From the sequence record MZ501089: a stretch of 64,000 nt of DNA, one strand, 5' to 3'. Positions within the stretch are counted from its first letter, which is position 1. Each line of letters begins with the position of its first letter. The notes under the pieces are model-generated. The model made no database searches. It was not told the origin of the DNA and saw only the letters and a program-made list of their open reading frames with translations. This stretch comes from Escherichia phage KarlGJung. Shown in pieces: positions 5,395-53,349 of this stretch. The translations under genes and the position numbers were made by a program.

Positions 5395-5544
5395 TTACTG
5401 CATGACTGTGATAACTGTCATGATAACACGTTGAATTCCGAACGCAAGAAGACCTCCTGCTACGGCAGGAACAACACCTAAACCCGCCAGTAAAATGCCA
5501 CCAGATACTAATGCAGCGCTTGTGATACCAATGAATGGACTCAT
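5395..5544 (-). CDS. 49 aa glycine-zipper membrane peptide (below track cutoff)
   Basis: Hand-translated MSPFIGITSAALVSGGILLAGLGVVPAVAGGLLAFGIQRVIMTVITVMQ; ATG overlaps gp52 TGA (ATGA); terminator follows. Confidence 0.45.
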   Translation of the reverse strand: MSPFIGITSAALVSGGILLAGLGVVPAVAGGLLAFGIQRVIMTVITVMQ

Positions 5545-10809: not shown

Positions 10810-10820
10810 AATTTTCCTTA

Positions 10821-13237: not shown

Positions 13238-13267
13238 ATTATACCACATCCTTGTGGTAAAGTAAAC
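13238..13267 (-). promoter_or_regulatory. Early promoter (GTTTAC-N18-TATAAT) with spacer hairpin
   Basis: gtaaac 13262-13267, attata 13238-13243; spacer accacatccttgtggt. Confidence 0.55.
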
Positions 13268-15084
13268 TACTGGCTCATCCATTCTTTACGAAGGTCAGCA
13301 TTATCTCCCATGAGCATTTCAAAAAGCTCTTTCCAGTTCTCAGGAAGTTTAACAACATCATATACTGGATTTTGAATCATCTCACGATATTCAGATTTTT
13401 CCAAAGAGCCAAGTCCTTTAATATAACGGATGCTATGTTTAGGTAGAGCATCTTTAGCACTCTCATATTCAGCGACTGTATAAAACCATTCTTGTTTTTT
13501 ACCGACCTGAGCGATGATTACAGGAGTTTTGACAAAACGAATTCTTCCTTGCTCAAACAGTTCTGGCCAATTACTAAAAAACCCGAGCAGAGAAGGATAA
13601 ATGCTTCCTAGACCATCATGGTCAGCATCAGTCATAATAGCAATATTATGATAATTCAAGTTTTCAGCTTTTTCACCGAGAACTAATCCAGTGATTGCGC
13701 AAATATCAAATAGTTCTTTGTTTTTAAGCATATCTGCATAAGACATACCCCAACTGTTGAGAACTTTACCGCGCAATGGATAACCACCGTGAAGTTCTTT
13801 ATCACGAACATCAATAAGATATCCGATAGCCGAATCACCCTCAGTCAAGAAAAGAGTAGTGTCAGCATCTTTACCACAAAGATTCGCTTTGATATGTTTA
13901 TGAACCTTAGCTTTAGAAGCCTTTTTAGCTGCTTTAGTTTCTGCTGCTTTTTCTGCCGCCAATTTACGAGCCAAAGCAGCTTCAATAATCGGCATTAGAA
14001 TTGCTTCATTATTTAGAATAGCGCGTGAAATCTTTTTAGCATCAAGTTGAATATGACTACGAATTTCGCCAAATGGAGAAGTCAAACGCTCTTTAGTTTG
14101 AGAATCAAATCGCATGTTTTTCATATCACGAACAAACATAACGATAGTCAAACATTCTTTAACACGCGCTTTAGTTACATCAATTTTGAACTTACGTTTG
14201 ATTTGTGGAATAAGGTCTTCACAAATATCATCCATAACACAGTCAATGTGATGGCCACCATTCTTAGTGTGAATGTTATTGACGTATGTTAATTGACGAA
14301 AACCATCCGGTGAACGACCAACCGCAATAGAACAATTTTCTTGTTCTTGAACAATAGCATGCTCATCATATTGGCGTGCATATTTCTTAAAATTGCCCTG
14401 AACCTTTTTACCATTAAAGGTAAATTGAATATCAGGATAAACTACTGCAAGTGTCTGGAGACGATCTAGTGTAATGTCAAGATAAACTTGGGACAGCTCA
14501 TTAGTTTCAAATGACATAAAATCAGGAATGAAAGTAACACGAGTTCCTTTCCATTTTCCAGGAATAGTTTCCCATGATTTATTTTCCATGCCATTTGAAC
14601 AACGAACTACAATATTATTTTGACCATCACCAGTTTCACCGACAAACATCACAGAAAAAATGTTTGTCAAACTAGAACCAACACCATTCATACCGCCAGT
14701 GACGCGTTCTTTATCATCACCGAAGTTACCACCTGCTTTTGGAATAGTCCATGCAGCAACAGGACCAGGAATTTCTTCACCGGTAGGTGTTTTAACCATC
14801 GCCTGCGGAATACCACGACCGTTATCTTCAACTGTTACTTGATTGTTTTTAATAGTAACATTAATTTTATTTGCGAATTTAAACTTAGTACGAATACCTT
14901 CATCTACTGAGTTATCGATAATTTCATCAATAAGCTTAACAAGACCAGGTACATACTGAACACTTTCCCATTTACCAAACAGAAAGCGCTCATGCATTTC
15001 ATTAGCAGAAGAGCCAATATACATGCCGCTACGCTTTTTGATATGTTCAATATCGCTCAGAATTTTAATTTCATTCTTAATCAT
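13267..15084 (-). CDS. 39: DNA topoisomerase II large subunit gp39, contiguous GyrB-like ATPase plus Toprim (no gene 60 split)
   Basis: Track ORF 606 aa from GTG; ATG one codon in gives 605 aa; GHKL motifs (VEDNGRGIP), Toprim (LFLTEGDSA), C-terminal region continuous. Confidence 0.9.
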   Translation of the reverse strand: MIKNEIKILSDIEHIKKRSGMYIGSSANEMHERFLFGKWESVQYVPGLVKLIDEIIDNSVDEGIRTKFKFANKINVTIKNNQVTVEDNGRGIPQAMVKTPTGEEIPGPVAAWTIPKAGGNFGDDKERVTGGMNGVGSSLTNIFSVMFVGETGDGQNNIVVRCSNGMENKSWETIPGKWKGTRVTFIPDFMSFETNELSQVYLDITLDRLQTLAVVYPDIQFTFNGKKVQGNFKKYARQYDEHAIVQEQENCSIAVGRSPDGFRQLTYVNNIHTKNGGHHIDCVMDDICEDLIPQIKRKFKIDVTKARVKECLTIVMFVRDMKNMRFDSQTKERLTSPFGEIRSHIQLDAKKISRAILNNEAILMPIIEAALARKLAAEKAAETKAAKKASKAKVHKHIKANLCGKDADTTLFLTEGDSAIGYLIDVRDKELHGGYPLRGKVLNSWGMSYADMLKNKELFDICAITGLVLGEKAENLNYHNIAIMTDADHDGLGSIYPSLLGFFSNWPELFEQGRIRFVKTPVIIAQVGKKQEWFYTVAEYESAKDALPKHSIRYIKGLGSLEKSEYREMIQNPVYDVVKLPENWKELFEMLMGDNADLRKEWMSQ

Positions 15085-19315: not shown

Positions 19316-19590
19316 TAAATTTTCCTTGCTAAATCGCGAATTTGACCTACAGTATAATCTTGGATATAAACTTTATTAATAGGCTCATCAATAAATTTTG
19401 CCATAGATTCAATATCTTTTTGTATCTCTTCAAGACTGTATACTATCTTTAAAGCTTTTTCGCGAATAGTAATATTTTCAGGACTAGAATTTTCCTCAAT
19501 GACAGCTTTAACATTTGTCATAAGAGATTTAAACTGATGCAAACTTAATTCAATCATTAATAACCGCCTTATAAAGATGGCTAATTTCAC
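19315..19590 (-). CDS. Hypothetical protein, 91 aa (paralog of next ORF)
   Basis: Track ORF; shares L-EEI-+D...V-I-DY--G-I motif with 19550..19810. Confidence 0.4.
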   Translation of the reverse strand: MKLAIFIRRLLMIELSLHQFKSLMTNVKAVIEENSSPENITIREKALKIVYSLEEIQKDIESMAKFIDEPINKVYIQDYTVGQIRDLARKI

Positions 19591-19810
19591 CTAAAGCATA
19601 ATCACTGATTGTGACAGTTTTCACTTCACCACAAAAGAATTCTAACGCAATCAAATCTCGTTCAATTTCTTCCAATTGAAGCATTAACTTACCAGATTCA
19701 ATTTTTACATTTCTACGATTTTTACTATAAGCTATTTCATAAATTTCGCTCACTTTATCTTGAAGAAGATAAAACTGATCTTTAGTTATTTCCACGAATA
19801 GCTTCCTCAA
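19550..19810 (-). CDS. Hypothetical protein, 86 aa (paralog of previous ORF)
   Basis: Track ORF; tandem paralog. Confidence 0.4.
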   Translation of the reverse strand: MRKLFVEITKDQFYLLQDKVSEIYEIAYSKNRRNVKIESGKLMLQLEEIERDLIALEFFCGEVKTVTISDYALGEISHLYKAVIND

Positions 19811-20042
19811 ATTTAATTAGTAATTTACAGACACTTTCATCTAATGTAATTACTGTATCTGTATTACTATGATATGATTGTTTTTCAATTCGTTTAATTG
19901 CTAATATAGTATCACTTATAAGATAAAGCTTATGAAGGAGCTCAGCTCCTGTTACCATAACATTAAGATTATCTTGCTTATTAGTATGCTTCCTTATACC
20001 ATCTATTAGACGATTTAAATATTTTGAATTGATGTTAATCAT
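19782..20042 (-). CDS. Hypothetical protein, 86 aa
   Basis: Track ORF immediately upstream of the dexA.x paralogs. Confidence 0.4.
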   Translation of the reverse strand: MININSKYLNRLIDGIRKHTNKQDNLNVMVTGAELLHKLYLISDTILAIKRIEKQSYHSNTDTVITLDESVCKLLIKFEEAIRGNN

Positions 20043-22546: not shown

Positions 22547-23149
22547 TTATAGATTAAATCCTTCAAAATCAAGAGTATAGATAGTGTATGTTGAATACTT
22601 TTTATACTCGTATCTATCCGCAATTCTAAATACACTTCCAGCTGGTATCATTACTTCTTGTTCATCTGAAACTAATTCCATATTACGATAGCGATGGCTA
22701 TCCGGAAACTTAAAACTCGGACTATATTCTTTACAACGTAGAGCTTTTATAGCATACTCCTGGAAATTGAATACCATAGGAGCTTTGAATTCAAAAATAA
22801 CTTGTGTGTTATACTCTAAACCGGAAGCAAAATGTAGAGCTATATTTTTATCATATGAAGCTGATACGACTTTATCAAATGTAATAATATCAATTCCTTG
22901 ATTTAATACTTGCTTAGTCTCAGCTGGAACACCTCTCCAAAGAGGTTTATCGTTTGGTTCCAAACGAGATTTGATTATTTCATTTAACCAAGTATGGTCA
23001 TCTGGTTTATTAGTAATACAATGAATTAAAAGTTCAATTTCAGATAAATTAAACCCTTCAGAAAGTAATTCTTCACGAATAGAAGCACGCACCGATGCAT
23101 CCATTGATTTGATTTTAAAATCTTTTAATTGCATTGCTGAATATTTCAT
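22547..23149 (-). CDS. modA: ADP-ribosyltransferase ModA
   Basis: 200 aa; R (LWRGV), S-x-S (SAS) and EQEVMIP catalytic signature; ATG start. Confidence 0.65.
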   Translation of the reverse strand: MKYSAMQLKDFKIKSMDASVRASIREELLSEGFNLSEIELLIHCITNKPDDHTWLNEIIKSRLEPNDKPLWRGVPAETKQVLNQGIDIITFDKVVSASYDKNIALHFASGLEYNTQVIFEFKAPMVFNFQEYAIKALRCKEYSPSFKFPDSHRYRNMELVSDEQEVMIPAGSVFRIADRYEYKKYSTYTIYTLDFEGFNL

Positions 23150-26257: not shown

Positions 26258-26265
26258 TATTTATA
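26258..26265 (-). promoter_or_regulatory. Late promoter TATAAATA for soc
   Basis: tatttata on + strand = TATAAATA on mRNA strand, about 30 nt upstream of the soc ATG. Confidence 0.6.
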
Positions 26266-30530: not shown

Positions 30531-30560
30531 ACTATACCATAGTCTTGTCAGCTTGTAAAC
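30531..30560 (-). promoter_or_regulatory. Early promoter (GTTTAC-N18-TATAGT), -35 overlapping the gene 41 stop
   Basis: gtaaac 30555-30560, actata 30531-30536. Confidence 0.5.
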
Positions 30561-31987
30561 TAAAATTTTAATTCATTTGCCAAAGCATCTAACTGAGCTC
30601 GAGTCGATTCGTTTCTTTGATAGCGATTCTGCTCAGCTTGTATCTGTTGTGAACCTGCTACCTCACTCACTTCAGTTGGAGTAGAATCTTGTTCAATTTC
30701 TACCCATTTCTGATTTCCTTTTTGAACACCCATCAAAAACTTATTCCATTTGTTCTTATCGCCATATCGTGATTTGATTTGCTTAATGAGTTGTTGTTCA
30801 GCAGCTGCTAGCTCCTCGGTTTCAATGACCGCAAGCATAAAATCAGCTGTTGCTGGAAGACCGGCAGATTCTGCAATATCGCTCATGTTAACATCAGAAG
30901 AATCCCAAGCTTGTTTACCAACCTGTGCTGCAGTCCAAAGAACAGTTTCGGTTTCAACAGCAAGAGCACGTAATTCCTCTGCAATGGCTTTAACAGTTGT
31001 GTAACTATTTTCTGAGTAAACTCTAATGCGGCAAGATTTACAAATACCCAGATAGTCGACAATAATGATTGTTGGAACAAAATTCTTCTTGAGCTTTAAT
31101 TCGTTTAAAAGCGATCGAAATGTATTAGCATCTGCTCCACCAGTAGGATACTGTTTAACTATTAAACGACCGAGAGTAGATTTCTCGCGCCATTTTTCCA
31201 TTTTTCCTTTATACTCAGCGTAAGAAATATGCCCGTCATCAATGTCATCAAGAGAAACATCAAGCATATTAGCATCAATACGCTTAGCACAGACTTCTTC
31301 TGCCATTTCCATGGAAATGTAAAGAACATTATGTCCGAGCTGCAAATAATCTGCTGCCAATGAACACAGACCTAATGACTTACCGACGTTAACACCAGCC
31401 ATTAAAACGTTCAGTGTTCCAGTTTCAGCTCCACCTTTAGTAATTTTATTTAGAATTTTGAGTCTAAATGGAACCTTACGAGCTTTATTCATATAAGATA
31501 GCCAACGTGCTTCGTAGTCATCCATCCAATCATGACCAACGTAACTATCAAATGAAATTGATAATGCTTGGCGCATGATGTCAGGAATAGCACCTACATC
31601 TGGCATTTTCTTATTTCGTTTTTCCGGAGGAAGCTCAGCATTAGTTTGAATTTCAATTATTTTAGACGTAGCATTAAACATCGCCCTTTGCTGAACATAT
31701 TTTTCTGTTTCTTTTACTAACCAGCTATGGTCTTCTGGAGAATCGGCTAGTTTCGAAATAAGTGTTTTTACACCAGAATATTCTGTTTCAGTAAATGAAC
31801 TATTTTCTAATGCAACATTTAACGCATTAATAGATGGAACGCTATGGTACTCATTAACATGAGATTTAATTAATTTGAACGTATTTTTAGCTGGACCACT
31901 TTCAAAATATTCTGAATCCATATATGGCCAAACTTTTGAAAAATAAGCTTGATCAAATATGAGATGAGAAAGAATAATTTCTACCAC
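30560..31987 (-). CDS. 41: Replicative DNA helicase gp41 (DnaB-like)
   Basis: 475 aa MVEIILSHLIFDQAYFSKVWPYMDSEYFESGPAKNTFKLIK...; Walker A GVNVGKS; apparent GTG start. Confidence 0.9.
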   Translation of the reverse strand: MVEIILSHLIFDQAYFSKVWPYMDSEYFESGPAKNTFKLIKSHVNEYHSVPSINALNVALENSSFTETEYSGVKTLISKLADSPEDHSWLVKETEKYVQQRAMFNATSKIIEIQTNAELPPEKRNKKMPDVGAIPDIMRQALSISFDSYVGHDWMDDYEARWLSYMNKARKVPFRLKILNKITKGGAETGTLNVLMAGVNVGKSLGLCSLAADYLQLGHNVLYISMEMAEEVCAKRIDANMLDVSLDDIDDGHISYAEYKGKMEKWREKSTLGRLIVKQYPTGGADANTFRSLLNELKLKKNFVPTIIIVDYLGICKSCRIRVYSENSYTTVKAIAEELRALAVETETVLWTAAQVGKQAWDSSDVNMSDIAESAGLPATADFMLAVIETEELAAAEQQLIKQIKSRYGDKNKWNKFLMGVQKGNQKWVEIEQDSTPTEVSEVAGSQQIQAEQNRYQRNESTRAQLDALANELKF

Positions 31988-31996
31988 ACTTACTCC

Positions 31997-32341
31997 TTAA
32001 AAGAATTTAAATTTTTTCTTTGACCTTTTATTAAATGCATCTTGTAGTTGCATTGTAATACATTTTTCTACATGAGGAGCTAACTCAGCTTTTCTTTCTT
32101 GGTCAAGAACAGCAAAGTCCATTACGACTTTTCCATCAACCCAATCTAATTTTGTCACATACACAATGTGTGTAGAACCGTCTTCTAGTTTAATGACAAT
32201 CTCCTGGATAACATTTTCCATGGCAGATTTAATTATCTTAAGAGATTCATTAAAAAGACGTTCTTTTCTTTCTTCTTCCCCCTCCGAAGAGGGGGATTCA
32301 TCGATAATTTCTAGATCTAAATCTAAATCATCTTTATTCAT
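31997..32341 (-). CDS. 40: gp40 (head-assembly-associated protein)
   Basis: Track ORF 31997..32359 (GTG) trimmed to ATG overlapping the uvsX stop; 114 aa MNKDDLDLDLEIIDESPSS... Confidence 0.55.
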   Translation of the reverse strand: MNKDDLDLDLEIIDESPSSEGEEERKERLFNESLKIIKSAMENVIQEIVIKLEDGSTHIVYVTKLDWVDGKVVMDFAVLDQERKAELAPHVEKCITMQLQDAFNKRSKKKFKFF

Positions 32342-33592: not shown

Positions 33593-34435
33593 TTAATCAA
33601 CTGCTATTGGATGAATAGCATTAAACTTATGAAATGCTTCTGATTTTTCTTTGCGCGAAACACACATGCGAAGAACCTTTAATGGCTCGTCTTCTTCACC
33701 CAACGATTTTCGTTTTTCGATATTAGAAGTTTTCCAACGAGCTTGCTCTGGAAACTCTCTATTGATTTGCTCAAGCGCTCTATTATGTTTAGAATTACTA
33801 CGAATTGAACTGCACCCGCCAGGAGCTTGTGCTTTTCCAGATACAACCAGATATTTGAACAAGGCCAAATGCGGATAACCTTGATTAATTAAATTGAGAA
33901 ATGCATACATATCTTCGCATAAATCAATTTTTCCATACCCAATTTGTTCTGTCGTAAGTTTTCCAAGGTCATACCATGTATTCGTGAATCCATATGAATT
34001 TTCACGATAATTACCCCAAGATGAAGTAATTTTAAAAATTGGTAGGCGAGCATGACCGTGATAATACCCACAATCCATGGCATCTTCGACGTATTGAATC
34101 AATTCATAGAACTGTTCACGAGTCAATTGATTGACTTTATCCACACAACGACGATCATCTCTTTTTCGCATTGAACTCATACGAATAGTAGTATCATCGT
34201 CAATCATCCAGATTCGTTGACCTGCATACATATCAGTAATTGCTTTACGAGTACCGGCAATTCCGTTTACATCATCAGGAATAGTTATAATTTTAGCTCT
34301 AGACCCATAGGCATCATAATAAGCTTTTTCTTCATGTTCACGCACTACAATATGGGGTTCATAATCAGTCGGAAACATATCAAGGGCAGAAACTGCCCCG
34401 ACACGCTGATAACTTGGAATTACGAATTGAATCAT
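33593..34435 (-). CDS. GT-A-fold glycosyltransferase in the beta-gt locus (candidate hmC-DNA sugar transferase)
   Basis: Track ORF 33593..34441 (GTG) trimmed to ATG overlapping the gp42 stop (ATGA); VIPSYQR N-terminal motif and IWMIDDDTTIR DxD motif; 280 aa. Confidence 0.55.
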   Translation of the reverse strand: MIQFVIPSYQRVGAVSALDMFPTDYEPHIVVREHEEKAYYDAYGSRAKIITIPDDVNGIAGTRKAITDMYAGQRIWMIDDDTTIRMSSMRKRDDRRCVDKVNQLTREQFYELIQYVEDAMDCGYYHGHARLPIFKITSSWGNYRENSYGFTNTWYDLGKLTTEQIGYGKIDLCEDMYAFLNLINQGYPHLALFKYLVVSGKAQAPGGCSSIRSNSKHNRALEQINREFPEQARWKTSNIEKRKSLGEEDEPLKVLRMCVSRKEKSEAFHKFNAIHPIAVD

Positions 34436-42443: not shown

Positions 42444-42498
42444 GTTTTTCCTCCATAGAGATTATACTCTAATAAATTAAAGCATAATCTCTTATAAA

Positions 42499-44181
42499 TT
42501 AAACCATTACAGTAAATCGACCAACTTTCTTCATTTGAAGATGCTGACCATATGCTTGTGGGTCATGGTCTCTATGCGAAATAACAAAAACATTAGTATT
42601 TTTTAAACTATCTAAAATAGTTGAAATAGCTTTTACACCTTCAACATCGGTCGCTGAATCAAAAACTTCGTCAAGAATTAACGTGTTTATTTTAACACCT
42701 GAAACTTTTTCAGCAATATCACGCCAAGTAAATAAAAGAGCAATATCAATTCGTGCTTTTTCACCTTGACTGAATGAAGCATAACTAAAATCTTCACGAC
42801 CACGGGATTTAATTGTCTCATTAAATTCTTCATCTAATGTAAACACATAATCCGCTTCCATTATTTTAAGATAATGGTTAATCTGCTTATTAAATAATGG
42901 AATGTACTTTTTAATAATAGCACCTTTAATACCAGAATCTTTGAGCATATCAGTCAAAATTCCTCGGTGGTATTTTTCCATTACTAAATTAGTTTTTGTC
43001 TTAACAATTTTATCAAGTTCTTCTTGAAGCAGTGCTATTTCATCAGCATGGTCAATAAACTCAGAAGATGCTTTTTCTATAGCCGCTTTAACTTTTTTAG
43101 CTTTATCTACCGTCGTGATTAGAGATTGCTTTTTATTGCGAATATCATTTGCCAACGACTGTTGGGTTTTAATATTATCTCGGTATTCATCAACAAGAAC
43201 TTTTAAATTATCACGATGTGTTGAAAGCTGTTCAAACGAATGCGTACATTCAGAAACTTTATCTTTAATTTTAGAAACAACTTTATCACCGGAACTCAAT
43301 TGTGACAAACAGGTTGGACATAATCCACCTTCGTGATACATATTAATGACTTTATTATACGAGTCAATTTTTGATTTAATTAAAACTGCTTCTTGACCGA
43401 TTTTATTAAATGCATCAGTCGGGTCTTCATCTAAAACAATATTAACTAATCTTTCGTTAGCTTCTTCTATTTCCGATTTTAGCGTTCTAGCTTCTTTTGC
43501 CAAATCATCATACATATTTTGCAGACGAGTAAGGTTGTCACCAGTTAATTTTTTCTGGCGTTCAACATTATCATTATATATTTTAATTTGTTGAATAATA
43601 CTATCTTTTTTAACATCAAGCACTTGATTCTGCGAATTTAATTCACGTATTAGTGCTTTATTAAGCTTATCCATTTCAGCTAATGTTCCTACCTCAAGCA
43701 GGTCTTCTACAAGCTTTCTTCGCGCAGGGGTCGACAAACCCATGAAAGGGGTATACCCTGCTGTACCAAGGACAACAATCTGCTTGAAACTGGCATATGA
43801 CATTCCGATAAGCTGTTCAAATTCTGCTTGGAAATCTTTACTGCTGGCAGATTCATTAAGACGTGTACCGTTAACGGTGATTTCGAAAACGTTTGGTTTT
43901 TGTCCTCTTTTGATATAGTACTTTTTCTCATCATATTCCATCCACAGTTCAACTAAAAGTTCTTTCTTATTTGTGCTGTTTATTAATTGACCTTTCTTTA
44001 CATCGCGAAATGGCTTGCCAAAAAGCCCAAATGTGATGGCTTCTAGCATAGTAGACTTACCACCGCCATTTCGTCCAGTAATAAGAGTTTTTTGAACCTT
44101 ATCTAATTGAATGTCAATAGGATTTCCACCTACTGACATTATATTTTGATACCTAACTCGGTTTAGTTTAAAATTCTTCAC
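42499..44181 (-). CDS. 46: Recombination/repair ATPase gp46 (Rad50/SbcC-like)
   Basis: 560 aa; Walker A GRNGGGKST, coiled-coil middle with CPTC zinc hook, C-terminal ABC signature; apparent GTG start overlapping upstream TGA. Confidence 0.85.
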   Translation of the reverse strand: MKNFKLNRVRYQNIMSVGGNPIDIQLDKVQKTLITGRNGGGKSTMLEAITFGLFGKPFRDVKKGQLINSTNKKELLVELWMEYDEKKYYIKRGQKPNVFEITVNGTRLNESASSKDFQAEFEQLIGMSYASFKQIVVLGTAGYTPFMGLSTPARRKLVEDLLEVGTLAEMDKLNKALIRELNSQNQVLDVKKDSIIQQIKIYNDNVERQKKLTGDNLTRLQNMYDDLAKEARTLKSEIEEANERLVNIVLDEDPTDAFNKIGQEAVLIKSKIDSYNKVINMYHEGGLCPTCLSQLSSGDKVVSKIKDKVSECTHSFEQLSTHRDNLKVLVDEYRDNIKTQQSLANDIRNKKQSLITTVDKAKKVKAAIEKASSEFIDHADEIALLQEELDKIVKTKTNLVMEKYHRGILTDMLKDSGIKGAIIKKYIPLFNKQINHYLKIMEADYVFTLDEEFNETIKSRGREDFSYASFSQGEKARIDIALLFTWRDIAEKVSGVKINTLILDEVFDSATDVEGVKAISTILDSLKNTNVFVISHRDHDPQAYGQHLQMKKVGRFTVMV

Positions 44182-44441
44182 AAAAGATTCCTTTTAATGT
44201 ATCTTTTAGACCATTCTATCATATCATCATAATCTAAAAAGTATTCATCAAATTCAGCCATGCAAACAACGCCTTGTGCTGTTTTTGATGTAATATAAAT
44301 TATTCCAACATATCTAGAATCTTCTTCGGTATAATCAATGTTTGCTATGAATTCATCATTAATGTTAAATGTCGAAAACTTCACAGTATGCATCCTTAAT
44401 ACAAGATACAGCCATATCTCGTAATGATTTAGGTGTGTCAT
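44178..44441 (-). CDS. Hypothetical protein, 87 aa
   Basis: Track ORF between 47 and 46. Confidence 0.45.
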   Translation of the reverse strand: MTHLNHYEIWLYLVLRMHTVKFSTFNINDEFIANIDYTEEDSRYVGIIYITSKTAQGVVCMAEFDEYFLDYDDMIEWSKRYIKRNLL

Positions 44442-44628
44442 TATCTAAAATGTTGAAGTTAAAAGATACAGCCCAGTCAGTGCAGACAGTAACCTTTTTA
44501 ATACAATTATCTTCAACCTCTAACGGTTCAAACCAATATTCAATAATTTCTTTATGCCCAATATCATCTTTTACTTCGCATTCAAAATGTTGACTCATCA
44601 TAACATTTTTAAATTCATCAAAAGTCAT
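44365..44628 (-). CDS. Hypothetical protein, 87 aa (start may be internal)
   Basis: Track ORF; overlaps downstream ORF. Confidence 0.4.
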   Translation of the reverse strand: MTFDEFKNVMMSQHFECEVKDDIGHKEIIEYWFEPLEVEDNCIKKVTVCTDWAVSFNFNILDNDTPKSLRDMAVSCIKDAYCEVFDI

Positions 44629-45644
44629 TGTGTTGCCTCTACATATAACTGATTTGCATATTGAATAAGTGCTTCACGGTCAGAATCAGTGATGTCTGGA
44701 ATTGCATTAATATACTCTTCCATTAATGTCTGAAGCGATTGAACTTCAACTTCTTCACTGTCATCTGACTCGACAGAGTTATCAATCTTTGACACAACTC
44801 GTAATGAATGCACAACTTTTTCTAGTTCAGATTCGAACTTCGTTAGATTTTTGTCTACTTCAGTTACTATAACACGTACTGATAGATTTGTAAAATCTTT
44901 ATAGTCAATTTTTCCTTTAAATGGATAATGAATTCTGCGATGCCAAGTAGTGTTGTTTGGAATAAATTCCATTCGTTCTGTTTCTGTATCAAACATCCAG
45001 AACCCGCGAGGGTCATTCTCGTCACCTGCAGTTAGTGTCCATGGTGTCCCAATATATCTGACATTTGCAGCCTCAGAGATAGTATGGAAGTGACCAGACC
45101 ACACCTCTTTATAAGTCTTAAGGAAATCAGGTTCAAGACCGTGAGATTTCATTCCTTTATAAAAATAAAATCCATTCAGCTCCCAGTGACCAACACAAAA
45201 AGAAGCAGATGAAGTTTTGATGTGTTCAAGAATTTCACCAGTATTTTCTTCACACATCCAAGGAATTAAATCAATCAAACATCCGTCAAAATCTACTGTA
45301 GTAGGCTTATCATATACTTTAACATTATGATATTTAGCCAAAAGCTCAGTAGAGGCATTTGGAGTTAAAGTATTTTTAAAGTGCATATCATGGTTTCCTA
45401 CAACAGTATGTAGGGTAATACCAGCATCATCAAGCATTTGAACTATTTCACGAGCGAACTCCATAGTTTTATGCGTGATTGCTTTTCGCACATCAAAAAT
45501 ATCGCCGTATTGAATCCAGGTAGTAATTCCATTTTTCTTAGAATATTCTATCGCTTGCTTAATTCCATCCAACTGAATGGATTGAACCCACTCATCATCG
45601 GCTTTAACGCCTAAATGCCAATCACCTAAATTTAAAATTTTCAT
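44625..45644 (-). CDS. 47: Recombination nuclease gp47 (Mre11/SbcD-like)
   Basis: 339 aa MKILNLGDWHLGVKADDEW...; phosphoesterase motifs GDWH, GDIFD, GNHD. Confidence 0.85.
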   Translation of the reverse strand: MKILNLGDWHLGVKADDEWVQSIQLDGIKQAIEYSKKNGITTWIQYGDIFDVRKAITHKTMEFAREIVQMLDDAGITLHTVVGNHDMHFKNTLTPNASTELLAKYHNVKVYDKPTTVDFDGCLIDLIPWMCEENTGEILEHIKTSSASFCVGHWELNGFYFYKGMKSHGLEPDFLKTYKEVWSGHFHTISEAANVRYIGTPWTLTAGDENDPRGFWMFDTETERMEFIPNNTTWHRRIHYPFKGKIDYKDFTNLSVRVIVTEVDKNLTKFESELEKVVHSLRVVSKIDNSVESDDSEEVEVQSLQTLMEEYINAIPDITDSDREALIQYANQLYVEATQ

Positions 45645-45781
45645 ATATCAAGAACCGTCATTGAAATGCAAAATAAAATTATTGAAATAAATCCATCTGG
45701 AGTGCTAAAGAACCCAATCCAACATGCTCTAGTGAATAGATAAAATGCAAGAAAAAGTATCACATATCCAAGAAATATCAT
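45641..45781 (-). CDS. 46 aa membrane peptide translationally coupled to gene 47 (below track cutoff)
   Basis: Hand-translated MIFLGYVILFLAFYLFTRACWIGFFSTPDGFISIILFCISMTVLDI; ATGA overlap. Confidence 0.4.
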   Translation of the reverse strand: MIFLGYVILFLAFYLFTRACWIGFFSTPDGFISIILFCISMTVLDI

Positions 45782-45804
45782 TATATCAAACTCCGTATAA
45801 AGCT

Positions 45805-45822
45805 AAAGGGCCGAAGCCCTTT
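45805..45822 (-). other. UUCG-tetraloop hairpin overlapping the agt stop codon
   Basis: aaagggc-cgaa-gcccttt. Confidence 0.5.
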
Positions 45823-47023
45823 ATTTTGTAATAATGTCAAACTGTTCTTTAAAGCAGAAGCTTGAATCTTGATGCTGATACAAAAATTCATATGCTTTTT
45901 CACGCTCACGGTCATAAAGAGCTCGGTCAGATGACAGTTCTTTAATACGTTCAAATGTTGATTCCATATCATTTTCATCAAACCAAATGATACCGCTATC
46001 ATGCGAGGTCAAAGGAGTATTATCAACACGGAATTTTAAATTTTCGCCAGTAGATTTCCAAAATACCGGAATTGTTCCACATGCACCAAGCTCGAGATGA
46101 GTATATTCTAAAGAGCGCTGTAGATATTTTTTATCCAACTTACTCAACTGATAACCAAATCCGGATTTACTCATACGTTCAAGCATTTCGCTATTTACAT
46201 AACGATCGAGAATTTGCGTTGGTAAATTAGGAGCAATTTTAATTTGGTCTACTTGATGAAGACGATAATACTCGTATGGAATTCCTTTTTCTTTAATAGG
46301 AATGAACGCTGGAGAACGTTCCAGACCTTCCATAATAGTACTTAGTCCTGCAGGTTTAAGATGTTTTTCGTGAAAATCAAACATCTGATAAAAACCTTTC
46401 CATGTAGTCGTACGACCAATCCAACGGTTGACATTCATGTTAATTTCAGAAACATCTTTCCAGTAGGTTGACCGAACCTTCGCAATATCCATAGGAGGCT
46501 GAAAGTTATATACGGTCGGCGCTTCTTCAATATCATCAAACAGAGAAACAGTTTCTGGATACCATTCTTTCATCAGAACTTTATTAAAATCACCATTATC
46601 AGAATGGCTAAAAATAACATCAGCTCGACTAACAGTTTCTTCTAATCCCAAATTTCGACGCAAAGAAAGAGAAGAATGGTCATGTTGATAAACTACAACA
46701 CGAACCGAAGGTTTAATGTTATCAATAATTTTTTTATAGTTATTAATAGTGTCTTCTTCAACTGAAGTAGCAGGAACTGAATTGATAATTAGAATATCAC
46801 AATCATTTACCAGCTTAAGTGTTTTATCGTATTCTTTTGCCAATAAAACCGGAATTGAAAATGATTTATAATCATGTGCACAGTTACGAGTAAATGATTT
46901 ATCTTTAGCATAAACCAAAGTTACTTCATGACCATTTTTAATAAACCAATCACGTTGCTCGAGCGAGAATTTTGTTACACCACAACCTTCAAGACCTCGA
47001 GCCATAAAAATACATACTTTCAT
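45821..47023 (-). CDS. agt: DNA alpha-glucosyltransferase (hmC alpha-glucosylation)
   Basis: 400 aa MKVCIFMARGLEGCGVTKFSLEQRDWFIKNGHEVTLVYAKDKSFTR... Confidence 0.9.
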   Translation of the reverse strand: MKVCIFMARGLEGCGVTKFSLEQRDWFIKNGHEVTLVYAKDKSFTRNCAHDYKSFSIPVLLAKEYDKTLKLVNDCDILIINSVPATSVEEDTINNYKKIIDNIKPSVRVVVYQHDHSSLSLRRNLGLEETVSRADVIFSHSDNGDFNKVLMKEWYPETVSLFDDIEEAPTVYNFQPPMDIAKVRSTYWKDVSEINMNVNRWIGRTTTWKGFYQMFDFHEKHLKPAGLSTIMEGLERSPAFIPIKEKGIPYEYYRLHQVDQIKIAPNLPTQILDRYVNSEMLERMSKSGFGYQLSKLDKKYLQRSLEYTHLELGACGTIPVFWKSTGENLKFRVDNTPLTSHDSGIIWFDENDMESTFERIKELSSDRALYDREREKAYEFLYQHQDSSFCFKEQFDIITK

Positions 47024-47074
47024 TTAATATCCTCTTTGTTTTGGTTTATTTTACCAAAAATTTATAAAGCAATA

Positions 47075-47092
47075 TAGGAGCCGAAGCTCCTA
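47075..47092 (-). other. UUCG-tetraloop hairpin upstream of agt
   Basis: taggagc-cgaa-gctccta. Confidence 0.45.
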
Positions 47093-47263
47093 TCCGCATA
47101 ATACGCCATACAGAGGCTCGTTAGAACTTTTAAATTTTATGCGCTTATATGTTATAGTTCCTTCTGCTTTAGCTTTATCATGAGACTCTTTAAAGCGTCT
47201 CAGCATTTCCTCTTTAGAGGAATGAATTTTATTATAATCTATTTCAGAAGTCTGGGTGTTCAT
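47090..47263 (-). CDS. Hypothetical 57 aa protein (below track cutoff; weak SD)
   Basis: Hand-translated MNTQTSEIDYNKIHSSKEEMLRRFKESHDKAKAEGTITYKRIKFKSSNEPLYGVLCG. Confidence 0.3.
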   Translation of the reverse strand: MNTQTSEIDYNKIHSSKEEMLRRFKESHDKAKAEGTITYKRIKFKSSNEPLYGVLCG

Positions 47264-50425: not shown

Positions 50426-50734
50426 TTAGTCTTCTATGATATCTCTATCGTATCCAAGTGAAATGAGAGTTTCTTTGAAGTGTTTAATGTTCTTTTGTCT
50501 AGAATCATTGATGAAAATGACTGGATAACGAATGTTAAGAGATGTGAATCCAGCGCGTTTAGCAAGAGATACAATCAGTGGACGATCATACTCAATCTTA
50601 CCATTATTTGTAAGAACTTTATAGAAAGTAAAAGGAGCATTGAGCTCCTTTAGAAGTTTTGTAACTGATTGACATCCAGGACAACGACCTACTTCATCTG
50701 GAATTCCATAGACTTCAATCTTATTTTGTTTCAC
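50426..50734 (-). CDS. nrdH: Glutaredoxin-like protein NrdH
   Basis: 102 aa with CPGC redox motif (EVGRCPGCQS); apparent GTG start with SD AAGGAA; upstream of nrdG/nrdD. Confidence 0.55.
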   Translation of the reverse strand: MKQNKIEVYGIPDEVGRCPGCQSVTKLLKELNAPFTFYKVLTNNGKIEYDRPLIVSLAKRAGFTSLNIRYPVIFINDSRQKNIKHFKETLISLGYDRDIIED

Positions 50735-50736
50735 AA

Positions 50737-50949
50737 CTATTCCTTACTAAGAGCAGCATTCAGCTTGTTAGTAATTTTATCCAGACGCTCATTGAACTCA
50801 CTAGAAGATAAGCCCTTTTCTGGAGAAATCAAACTAATCACGAAAAATATAGCAATAAAAGGAATAAGGAAAATAGCTCCAACTGCCATAAACAGAAAGA
50901 ATGTTACAGTTGTAAGAAAATCAGCTAAACCTTTACGAAATTTATACAT
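50737..50949 (-). CDS. Small membrane protein, 70 aa
   Basis: Hydrophobic TFFLFMAVGAIFLIPFIAIFFVISLI. Confidence 0.4.
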   Translation of the reverse strand: MYKFRKGLADFLTTVTFFLFMAVGAIFLIPFIAIFFVISLISPEKGLSSSEFNERLDKITNKLNAALSKE

Positions 50950-51064: not shown

Positions 51065-51535
51065 TTAATCATGTTTCCACACCCCATCGGTATTTGACCA
51101 AAGTCGCTGATTATCTGATCCTCGCCACAGCTTTTTAGTCGGAAGATTTTTCTCATACTTCCCATCAATAATAACATCAACATATTTAAGCATTTCTAGT
51201 TGTTTAATATCTTCAAACTTATATCCTGTCCATAACCAAATGCTTTTATTGGGATAAAGATTTTTTACTGTTTGAACAATGCAATGAATAACATCTCGAT
51301 TATCCGGATAGAGAGGGTCTCCTCCAGTTATAGTCAATCCTTCTATATAATCATTATTCAAACATTCAATTAATTGTTCTAGTGTTTCACCAGTGAATGG
51401 AATACCATTTCTAGCATTCCATGTTGATTTATTATAACACCCTTCGCATTTATGCAAACAACCTGTAACGAAAAGAACGACCCTGCAACCAGGGCCATTC
51501 ACAAAATCGCAAGGATAAAATCTATCATAATTCAT
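51065..51535 (-). CDS. nrdG: Anaerobic ribonucleotide reductase activating protein NrdG (radical SAM)
   Basis: 156 aa MNYDRFYPCDFVNGPGCRVVLFVTGCLHKCEGCYN; ATGA overlap with nrdD stop. Confidence 0.85.
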   Translation of the reverse strand: MNYDRFYPCDFVNGPGCRVVLFVTGCLHKCEGCYNKSTWNARNGIPFTGETLEQLIECLNNDYIEGLTITGGDPLYPDNRDVIHCIVQTVKNLYPNKSIWLWTGYKFEDIKQLEMLKYVDVIIDGKYEKNLPTKKLWRGSDNQRLWSNTDGVWKHD

Positions 51536-53349
51536 TGATGCTTAACCCTATGCATGATTTCTTTATTTTTGCCGAGATTAAATCCACGTTCGTTCGGATT
51601 TCCCAAATAACCACATGTTCTTCTTATTGTGTTCATCTTTTTAGGATCAGTTTCTCCACAAATAGAACAAACAAATCCGTTTTCAGTAGGAGTCATTTCA
51701 TGGGTACTTCCACATGTAAAACATTTATCTACTGGCATATTAACACCAAAATAATCTAAATGTTGTGCAGCATAATCCCATACGGCCTCAAGACCCTTTA
51801 AGTTATTTTTCATATCAGGAAGTTCAACATAAGAAATGTGACCACCTGTCGCAATGAAATGATATGGCGCTTCACGAGAAATCTTTTCAAACGGAGTAAT
51901 ATTTTCTTCTACTGAAACGTGGAAACTGTTAGTGTACCAGCCTTTATCGGTAACATCTTTTACACTTCCATATTTTTCTGTATCAAGTTTACAGAAGCGA
52001 TAACAAAGGTTTTCAGCAGGAGTCGAATATAAACTAAAAGCAAATCCAGTTCTTTCAGTCCACTGTTTAAGATGAGCATTCATCTTAGTTAAAATTTCTT
52101 GTCCAATATCACGACCTACAAGAATATTCAATTCGTGAATACCAATGTATCCTAGAGACACTGAACTTCTGCCATTTTTAAATAACTCAATTATATCGTC
52201 ATCAGGTTTAAGACGAACCCCGAATGCACCTTCTTGGTAAAGAATAGGAGCAACAGTCGCTTTAACTCCTTTTAAGGAACTAATTCTACACATCAATGCT
52301 TCAAAACATAAATCCATTCGTTCATTGAACAATTCAACAAATTTCTGTTCATTGAATTGTGTTCCAATATAAGAATCTAACGCGATACGAGGAAGATTCA
52401 GTGTTACAACACCGAGATTATTACGTCCATCAAGAATTTCATTGCCAGTCGAATCTTTCCATACGCCCAAGAAACTACGACAACCCATTGGAGAAACAGG
52501 AATAGATGAGCCGGTGATAGCTTTATTGTTCTTAGCTGAAATAATGTCAGGATACATCCTTTTGCTTGCGCACTCTAGAGCAAGCTGCTTAATATCATAG
52601 TTCGGATCGTCTTTATAAAGATTAACACCTTCTTCAACGAACATAACAAGCTTAGGGAAAATAGGAGTTATCCCATCACGACCAAGACCTTTAATACGAT
52701 TTTTCAGAATTGCTTTCTGAATCATTCGTTCAGTCCAGTCAGTTCCCGTACCAAATGTAATTGTTACAAAAGGAGTCTGTCCGTTTGAACTAAAGAGAGT
52801 ATTTACTTCATATTCATAAGCTTGGAATGCATCGTATACGTCTTTTTCTGTTTTAGATTGAGCATAATTCAACGCATCGGCGATTTGCCATTTTTCTGCA
52901 TCCTCAATATGTTTTGCATAGGTGCGTTTAACATAAGGAGAAAGTACTTTATCTACATTCGCAAAAGTCGTTCCGCCGTATTGGTGAGAAGCAACCTGTG
53001 CGGTAATTTGTGCCATAATTGCAGTAGCAACACCGATTGATTTAGGAGTTTCAATCTGTGCATTACCAAGCTTAAATCCATTCTCAAGCATTCCTTTTAA
53101 ATCTACTAAACAACAATTAGTAAATGGAAGAGCAGGGGAATAATCAATATCGTGGAAATGGATAATTCCGCTTTCATGCGCTTTCATAATAAAAGACGGG
53201 ACCATATTTTTGGCAATGTGTTTAGACACAATACCAGCCATAAGGTCCCGTTGAGTTGGAAAAACACGAGAATCTTTATTAGCATTCTCGTTTAAAAGGT
53301 CTTTATTAGTTTTATGAATCAATCCTTCAATTTCTTTTTCAATTGTCAT
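51532..53349 (-). CDS. nrdD: Anaerobic ribonucleoside-triphosphate reductase NrdD (uninterrupted)
   Basis: 605 aa continuous ORF; C-terminal zinc ribbon CFTCGSTHE...CSICGE and glycyl-radical motif RTCGYLG. Confidence 0.9.
   Translation of the reverse strand: MTIEKEIEGLIHKTNKDLLNENANKDSRVFPTQRDLMAGIVSKHIAKNMVPSFIMKAHESGIIHFHDIDYSPALPFTNCCLVDLKGMLENGFKLGNAQIETPKSIGVATAIMAQITAQVASHQYGGTTFANVDKVLSPYVKRTYAKHIEDAEKWQIADALNYAQSKTEKDVYDAFQAYEYEVNTLFSSNGQTPFVTITFGTGTDWTERMIQKAILKNRIKGLGRDGITPIFPKLVMFVEEGVNLYKDDPNYDIKQLALECASKRMYPDIISAKNNKAITGSSIPVSPMGCRSFLGVWKDSTGNEILDGRNNLGVVTLNLPRIALDSYIGTQFNEQKFVELFNERMDLCFEALMCRISSLKGVKATVAPILYQEGAFGVRLKPDDDIIELFKNGRSSVSLGYIGIHELNILVGRDIGQEILTKMNAHLKQWTERTGFAFSLYSTPAENLCYRFCKLDTEKYGSVKDVTDKGWYTNSFHVSVEENITPFEKISREAPYHFIATGGHISYVELPDMKNNLKGLEAVWDYAAQHLDYFGVNMPVDKCFTCGSTHEMTPTENGFVCSICGETDPKKMNTIRRTCGYLGNPNERGFNLGKNKEIMHRVKHQ

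Follow-up and report, generated by a model that had tools for sequence, protein, structure and literature searches.

Genes 46, 41, and nrdH of Escherichia phage KarlGJung are very probably translated from GUG codons that stand behind Shine-Dalgarno (SD) sequences, in a genome whose stop-start overlaps are of the kind that goes with tight gene packing and which probably couple translation at some junctions. This joint reading comes from a stretch of 64,000 nucleotides of sequence record MZ501089 (the window). The three GUG codons would be decoded as fMet by the initiator tRNA, the standard bacterial mechanism. Both features are already known from the annotation of phage T4, and neither is out of the ordinary where bacterial or phage genomes are compact; GTG starts at about 3% of genes, and stop and start bases shared by about a quarter of adjacent gene pairs, are textbook features of T4. 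The main relevance is to annotation quality: five of eight sampled public records lose 14 residues of gp46 that align with the N terminus of the Rad50 ATPase.

The window and its genes

A 5-kb query around gene 46 matches approximately 500 Tequatrovirus genomes at 95%–99% identity. The window as a whole is about 96% identical in DNA sequence to phage T4 (NC_000866), with window position 10810 corresponding to T4 position 1. Judged by these matches, its source is a T4-like Tequatrovirus. It differs from T4 in being without several of the homing-endonuclease genes and in having a second glucosyltransferase of the T2/T6 type. For the gene map, 107 T4 RefSeq coding sequences were placed on the window by tblastn, and 104 mapped genes were counted. 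Nearly all window genes are carried by the minus strand. Relatives were taken from IMG/VR scans, which gave 45 loci for gp46 (44 full-length loci were analyzed), 45 for gp41, and 11 for nrdH. The features discussed below are collected in Table 1.

GTG starts are not unusual in these genomes. Five of the 104 mapped genes begin with it (46, 41, nrdH, 46.1, and dexA.2), as do eight of the 266 principal coding sequences of T4 (mobA, dexA.2, 41, 46, 46.1, nrdH, cd.2, and denA). Apart from 41, 46, and nrdH, T4 RefSeq annotates GTG starts at 46.1, dexA.2, and mobA. The resulting 3%–5% lies below the figure of about 14% usually cited for genes of E. coli K-12. Choosing the longest open reading frame (ORF) is a poor guide to the start: in 31 of the 104 genes, it begins 5′ of the T4-homologous start, at GTG or TTG in 25 cases, and the initial annotation was right to regard several of its ORFs as over-extended.

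Table 1. Coordinates of window features (minus-strand features are given as low..high)
Feature	Coordinates	Strand	Remarks
Gene 52 stop/motA.1 (49 aa) start	5541..5544	-	ATGA junction
dexA.2	19550..19795	-	81 aa; GTG start, missed in the initial annotation; SD AGGA, 8 nt; next ATG at codon 38
modB stop/modA start	23146..23149	-	ATGA junction
Gene 41, DnaB-like replicative helicase	30560..31987	-	475 aa; GTG start 31985-31987
Gene 41 SD TAAGGAG	31993..31999	-	Spacing 5; includes gene 40 stop TAA
Gene 42 stop/beta-glucosyl-HMC-alpha-glucosyltransferase start	34432..34435	-	ATGA junction
Gene 46, Rad50/SbcC-like ATPase subunit of gp46/gp47 recombination nuclease	42499..44181	-	560 aa from GTG
In-frame ATG, gene 46 codon 15	44137..44139	-	Alternative start in several public annotations; probably not the start
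Gene 46 start codon GTG	44179..44181	-	First start-type codon of the ORF; same codon in T4 RefSeq
Gene 46 SD AAGGA	44189..44193	-	Spacing 7 nt 5′ of GTG
Gene 46.1 (DUF5487)	44178..44384	-	68 aa; GTG start, missed in the initial annotation; SD TAAGGA, 8 nt; next ATG at codon 42
Gene 46.2	44365..44628	-	87 aa; 20-nt overlap with 46.1; gene 47 overlaps as ATGA
Gene 47, Mre11/SbcD-like subunit	44625..45644	-	ATGA overlap at each end
47.1/47	45641..45644	-	ATGA junction
Gene 47.1	45641..45781	-	46 aa; first ORF of the overlap chain
nrdH glutaredoxin	50426..50734	-	102 aa; GTG start 50732-50734
nrdH SD TAAGGA	50741..50746	-	Spacing 6; 55.8 stop TAG 2 nt 5′ of GTG
nrdD stop/nrdG start	51532..51535	-	ATGA junction

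GTG starts of genes 46, 41, and nrdH

The proposal that gp46, gp41, and nrdH open with GTG behind an SD sequence was borne out. The same codons are annotated as starts in T4 RefSeq, and all relatives examined have a start codon at the homologous position. In each of the three genes, only three or four sense codons separate the upstream in-frame stop from the GTG, with no start codon among them. Taken with the evidence given below for each gene, this makes the three GTG starts well supported and about as secure as sequence analysis allows. The companion claim, that no in-frame ATG lies nearby, fared unevenly. It holds fully for nrdH, which has none at all, and acceptably for gp41, where the first is codon 23; it fails for gp46, where codon 15 is an ATG.

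The interval singled out in the initial annotation, 42499–44181, coincides exactly with the gene 46 ORF, and the identity of gp46 is clear from several features. Residues 1–560 are 95% identical to T4 gp46, and the Pfam models AAA_23 and SMC_N match above their cut-offs, with a weak match to the Rad50 zinc-hook model below cut-off. The best Rad50 match in the PDB has E = 3.6e-11. Walker A (GRNGGGKS) is found at residue 36, CPTC at 288, SQGE at 471, and LILDE at 501, which is the Rad50/SbcC ABC-ATPase pattern of an N-terminal Walker A, a CxxC hook, and a C-terminal signature with Walker B. The four sense codons that lead from the upstream stop to the GTG (AAG GAA TCT TTT) include no start codon, and the GTG shares bases with the TGA stop of 46.1 (44178–44180) as GTGA. 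Pairing of the SD with the anti-SD is unexceptional at −5.6 kcal/mol (rank 61 of 104 genes). Across the 44 relatives, which span 55%–100% identity, the codon homologous to this GTG is ATG in 30, GTG in 13, and TTG in one, and the K-x-F-K-L that follows the start is kept in all those examined. Residue 5 aligns with residue 2 of P. furiosus Rad50. The residue numbers used in the T4 Rad50 literature (Arg154/Arg155/Lys156) fit a count from the GTG, and a literature search found no usable statement of a GUG start for gene 46.

The SD of gene 41 is one of just two 7-nt matches among the 104 mapped genes, with a pairing energy of −8.7 kcal/mol (rank 10 of 104). The homologous codon is GTG in 39 relatives, ATG in five, and TTG in one (45 in total). 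The protein matches Pfam DnaB_C (3e-17) and, over its full 475 residues, is near-identical to the T4 helicase chains in 8dtp. Structures of the T4 helicase (8dtp, 8due, and others) contain a 475-residue protein with the N terminus MVEIIL. In a 2025 paper (PMC12152347), a T4 laboratory gives GUG as the first codon of the gene 41 ORF and compares GUG with AUG reporters.

The nrdH ORF is without any ATG, and the GTG is the sole ATG, GTG, or TTG codon in frame; the SD pairs at −6.1 kcal/mol. The product matches Pfam Glutaredoxin (24.0 bits, with the cut-off at 22.9), and residues 18–21 form its CPGC active site. In relatives, the start is GTG, TTG, or ATG and lies no more than a few codons from this position; one of them, with a TTG start, likewise has no ATG 5′ of the active site.

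The SD sites of the GTG genes are typical of the genome and not unusually strong. Their mean anti-SD pairing is −6.5 kcal/mol, compared with −5.5 kcal/mol for the 99 ATG genes and a genome median of −5.9 kcal/mol. The idea that a stronger SD compensates for GTG was therefore unsupported (Mann-Whitney p = 0.17), as the middling rank of gp46 also indicates. RNA folding of the three GTG initiation regions gave no significant structure (z = −0.26, +0.78, and +1.21). Neither initiation-site profiling nor N-terminomics of T4 turned up in the literature searched.

Alternatives to GUG initiation

One alternative is that gp46 and, by analogy, gp41 start further in, at whichever ATG comes first in the frame (codon 15 and codon 23, respectively), and that the codons led by GTG are an untranslated leader. 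Gene 46 does contain such an ATG (Table 1), and several public annotations have adopted it. Of eight GenBank/RefSeq records sampled from close relatives, five carry a 546-aa gp46 that begins at Met15 (KAW1E185 from RefSeq, CHD16UKE1, 303Ecol101PP, teqsoen, and Geo), all of them automated calls, whereas the 560-aa protein is annotated from GTG in T4, phiD1, and phage 107. The comparison of relatives makes the shorter proteins very improbable. Diversity at codons 2–14 of gp46 is 0.18, 0.13, and 0.49 at codon positions 1, 2, and 3 (33 unique relatives), and that at codons 2–22 of gp41 is 0.24, 0.15, and 0.50 (27 unique relatives); variation mainly at third positions indicates that the codons ahead of both internal ATGs are translated. 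The SD pairing before these ATGs is weak, −4.3 kcal/mol and ill-placed at approximately 13 nt for gp46 and −1.5 kcal/mol for gp41. One relative (L040) has Leu where gp46 has Met15. Because residue 5 of gp46 aligns with residue 2 of Rad50, a start at Met15 would delete a conserved N-terminal segment (Rad50 residues 2–12). The ATG found exactly at the GTG position in 30 of the 44 relatives settles the correct start of gp46, and for nrdH no ATG is available as a substitute. On this evidence from sequence, the 546-aa annotations of gp46 are wrong.

A different way around GUG initiation would be for part of the gp46 to be made as a 46.1–46 fusion by −1 ribosomal frameshifting at the CUUUUGUGA junction. 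The two frames do overlap at a short U-run (UCUUUUG) directly before the 46.1 stop. The heptamer at the junction does not, however, fit the canonical X XXY YYZ pattern of a slippery site, and no significant structure is predicted downstream of it. Nor is the arrangement conserved: the start position of gene 46 is fixed, but the sequence upstream of it is wholly different in most relatives. With a correctly spaced SD before the GUG as well, the chance that frameshifting contributes seems close to negligible, and the candidate was rejected for want of a slippery site and of conservation. Initiation at the GUG is thus the reading that we retain for gene 46.

Turnover of the start codons

Changes of start codon were counted on neighbor-joining trees built from the relatives. 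At least seven state changes have occurred at the gene 46 start, against a median of four at A/G synonymous sites. ATG and GTG therefore interchange at about the rate of synonymous sites or faster, and the identity of this start codon looks nearly neutral. The gene 41 start appears more stable. Its first base changed three times, against a median of five for A/G synonymous sites and of 10 for four-fold sites, and GTG is retained in 13 of the 17 lineages that are more than 10% apart in protein sequence. As 26% of A/G synonymous sites show equally few changes, this is just a mild hint of constraint, and strong purifying selection on the codon was set aside on the same grounds. Mild selection could explain why most lineages have kept GTG, and so could common ancestry alone. 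We consider it unlikely, from these counts, that selection holds the gene 41 GTG across the Tevenvirinae; if it did, a deliberately sub-maximal or IF3-sensitive rate of initiation would set helicase dosage.

Stop-start overlaps

All five of the overlaps named in the initial annotation are real, and each is a 4-nt ATGA (Table 1). The TAATG junctions that it also mentioned exist but lie at other gene pairs, namely arn.3/arn.2, ndd/stp, cef/goF, dexA.1/dexA, and mrh.2/mrh.1. Among the 103 adjacent co-directional pairs of the window, 15 have a spacing of −4 nt, five a spacing of −1 nt (TAATG), and five a spacing of −8 nt, so that 25 pairs have one of these three overlaps; a further five overlap in other ways, and 24 are separated by a gap of 0–10 nt. 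The corresponding counts for the 256 pairs of the T4 genome are 40 (−4 nt), 25 (−1 nt), nine (−8 nt), 27 (other overlaps), and 49 (gap of 0–10 nt). Spacings of −4, −1, and −8 are enriched across all prokaryotes, both bacteria and archaea (PMC12548453). The overlaps of the window match the tight gene packing of the whole T4 genome and of prokaryotes generally.

This pattern is not due to chance. Between long ORFs, the coding strand has 33 NTGA junctions and the antisense strand 11, a three-fold excess, and 200 shuffles gave a mean of 3.7 and a maximum of 10.

The 47.1-to-46 chain and probable translational coupling

The ORFs 47.1-47-46.2-46.1-46 form an unbroken chain of overlaps, in which gene 46 is last. 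No MotA-box or TATAAATA (late-promoter) motif was seen between genes 47 and 46, and sigma-70-like matches are at background (29 against 24.5 expected). An internal promoter found no support in these scans, and the absence of MotA-box and late-promoter motifs is consistent with a single transcript. The junction at gene 46 is itself widespread: in 37 of the 44 relatives, the ORF 5′ of this gene is 30 codons or longer and terminates in the NTGA overlap. In approximately 15 loci, the overlapping ORF is gp47 itself; elsewhere, it can be 46.1-like. The NTGA is partly forced, since codon 2 of gene 46 is always Lys (AAR).

From the arrangement of the genes, translational coupling at the overlaps is plausible, above all along the 47.1-to-46 chain. 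Ribosomes that end on the upstream ORF would probably aid initiation at some junctions. The top candidate is coupling of 47 to 46, which would help to match the amounts of the two nuclease subunits. In the T4 literature surveyed, coupling is documented for the clamp-loader genes 44/62 only (PMC2988022).

The competing explanation is that the overlaps are a by-product of compaction, with each downstream gene initiated independently from its own SD and no functionally important coupling. Several results speak for this. The second codon begins with A in 69 of 104 genes, so NTGA arises easily. An SD is present at every GTG gene and at most ATG genes, and the folding results gave no evidence that RNA structure masks the three GTG regions such that coupling would be needed. 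With their own SDs and no significant structure, these three regions could equally well support independent initiation, and translation of the upstream gene is not obviously required. All five GTG genes of the window overlap an upstream stop or sit within 10 nt of one, which might suggest that GTG starts depend on termination nearby. The T4 genome gave no support to such dependence, as its GTG genes are no nearer to upstream stops than its ATG genes (six of eight and 144 of 248, respectively; p = 0.28). What compaction accounts for less well is the gene 46 junction, which is kept in most relatives although the ORF that it ends differs (gp47, 46.1-like, or others). The three-fold excess of junctions over the antisense strand and the coupling shown for T4 genes 44/62 also weigh against a mere by-product. 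We regard this explanation as somewhat unlikely and favor coupling at some of the junctions, with that between 47 and 46 foremost.

Comparison with known systems

The closest comparison is with T4 itself. Gene order and the GTG codons of 46, 41, and nrdH are the same in T4 (NC_000866) as in the window, and the proteins are 95%, 99%, and 99% identical, respectively. The sequences 5′ of the three starts are identical over the 25 nt compared, leaving the start sites without difference. More broadly, the three genes resemble the SD-led GUG initiation of E. coli and its phages, with a GUG located 5–7 nt 3′ of AAGGA or TAAGGAG in an unstructured region, and no departure from that type was detected. 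The documented coupled pair of T4, 44/62, has a spacing of +1 in the window (TGATATG) and therefore no overlap. As in known coupled pairs, gp47 and gp46 are subunits of one complex; here, they are joined by overlaps, directly in approximately 15 relatives. The three spacings of −4, −1, and −8 reported for coupled pairs (PMC12548453) are the same three that dominate the overlaps of the window.

Start Codon Assignment among Relatives

Two starts, those of gp46 (the Rad50/SbcC-like nuclease subunit) and of the adjacent ORF 46.1, are in disagreement among public records. When the starts were compared across 42499–44181 and 44178–44394 of the window, with loci L105–L111 included, gp46 was given as 560 aa from a GTG in three records and as 546 aa from an ATG at codon 15 in five. 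For 46.1, five records have a 68-aa product that begins at GTG, and three have 71 aa, with an ATG three codons upstream.

The exact start of gene 41 (replicative helicase) is ambiguous in one clade of gp41 relatives (loci L073–L078, L083, L085, and L088–L092; about positions 989–1003), because the start region reads GAG GTG GTG GAA GTG GTA GAA and so holds three in-frame GTG codons within 15 nt. Locus L093 has the same upstream sequence as this clade, yet carries ATG at the codon homologous to the T4 start.

The nrdH (glutaredoxin) N-terminus was compared between loci L097–L101 and 50726–50760 of the window. In several otherwise near-identical relatives, VEQNSNLKNK... replaces VKQNK..., and the gene upstream of nrdH also differs in these relatives. 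This paired difference suggests a recombination boundary exactly at the nrdH start.

Promoter-like Motifs and Terminator-like Hairpins

The T4 late-promoter core, TATAAATA, occurs only once in 64 kb, at 26258–26265 (−), a short way ahead of soc, a late gene. Shuffled sequences contained approximately 10 copies, with at least one in 100 of 100 cases; judged by this deficit, the core appears to be strongly avoided within the early-gene region. A search for a MotA-box-like pattern (TGCTTNA, 10–14 nt, TANNNT) returned 20 sites in the window against 7.8 expected. Both hairpins listed in the table are annotated as putative terminators in the public Tequatrovirus record KAW1E185, a 99% identical relative.

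Features of the KarlGJung window
Feature	Position	Strand	Remarks
Gene 39	13267–15084	−	One 605-aa ORF
Additional ORF	19782–20042	−	~86 aa; between dda and dexA.2
TAGT-family protein	33593–34435	−	280 aa; Pfam family TAGT
MotA-box-like site	42459–42484	−	Directly after gene 46 stop, ahead of 45.2
Hairpin	45804–45823	Minus-strand RNA	GC-rich, stable, UUCG tetraloop; a-gt/47.1 boundary
MotA-box-like site	47048–47071		Ahead of a-gt
Hairpin	47074–47093	Minus-strand RNA	GC-rich, stable, UUCG tetraloop; upstream of a-gt
nrdD	51532–53349	−	605-aa ORF, unbroken; directly adjoins nrdG

Comparison with T4

No counterpart of the T4 homing-endonuclease genes mobA, segF, segA, mobB, and mobC was found across the whole window, nor was one found there of the T4 nrdD intron with I-TevII. 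The additional ORF, whose stop falls 14 nt within dexA.2, just beyond the dexA.2 GTG start, is absent from T4; it looks as if its interior was lost there through deletion between short ATTAA repeats.

Residues 27–160 of T4 gp60 correspond to the C-terminal residues 472–605 of the gene 39 product (95.5% match) within one ORF; the topoisomerase II large subunit is therefore uninterrupted in KarlGJung, which lacks both the mobA insertion and the 50-nt translational bypass of gene 60. At the position of the T4 beta-glucosyltransferase, KarlGJung has the TAGT-family protein instead. KAW1E185 annotates this product as a beta-glucosyl-HMC-alpha-glucosyltransferase, which points to DNA glucosylation of the T2/T6 type.
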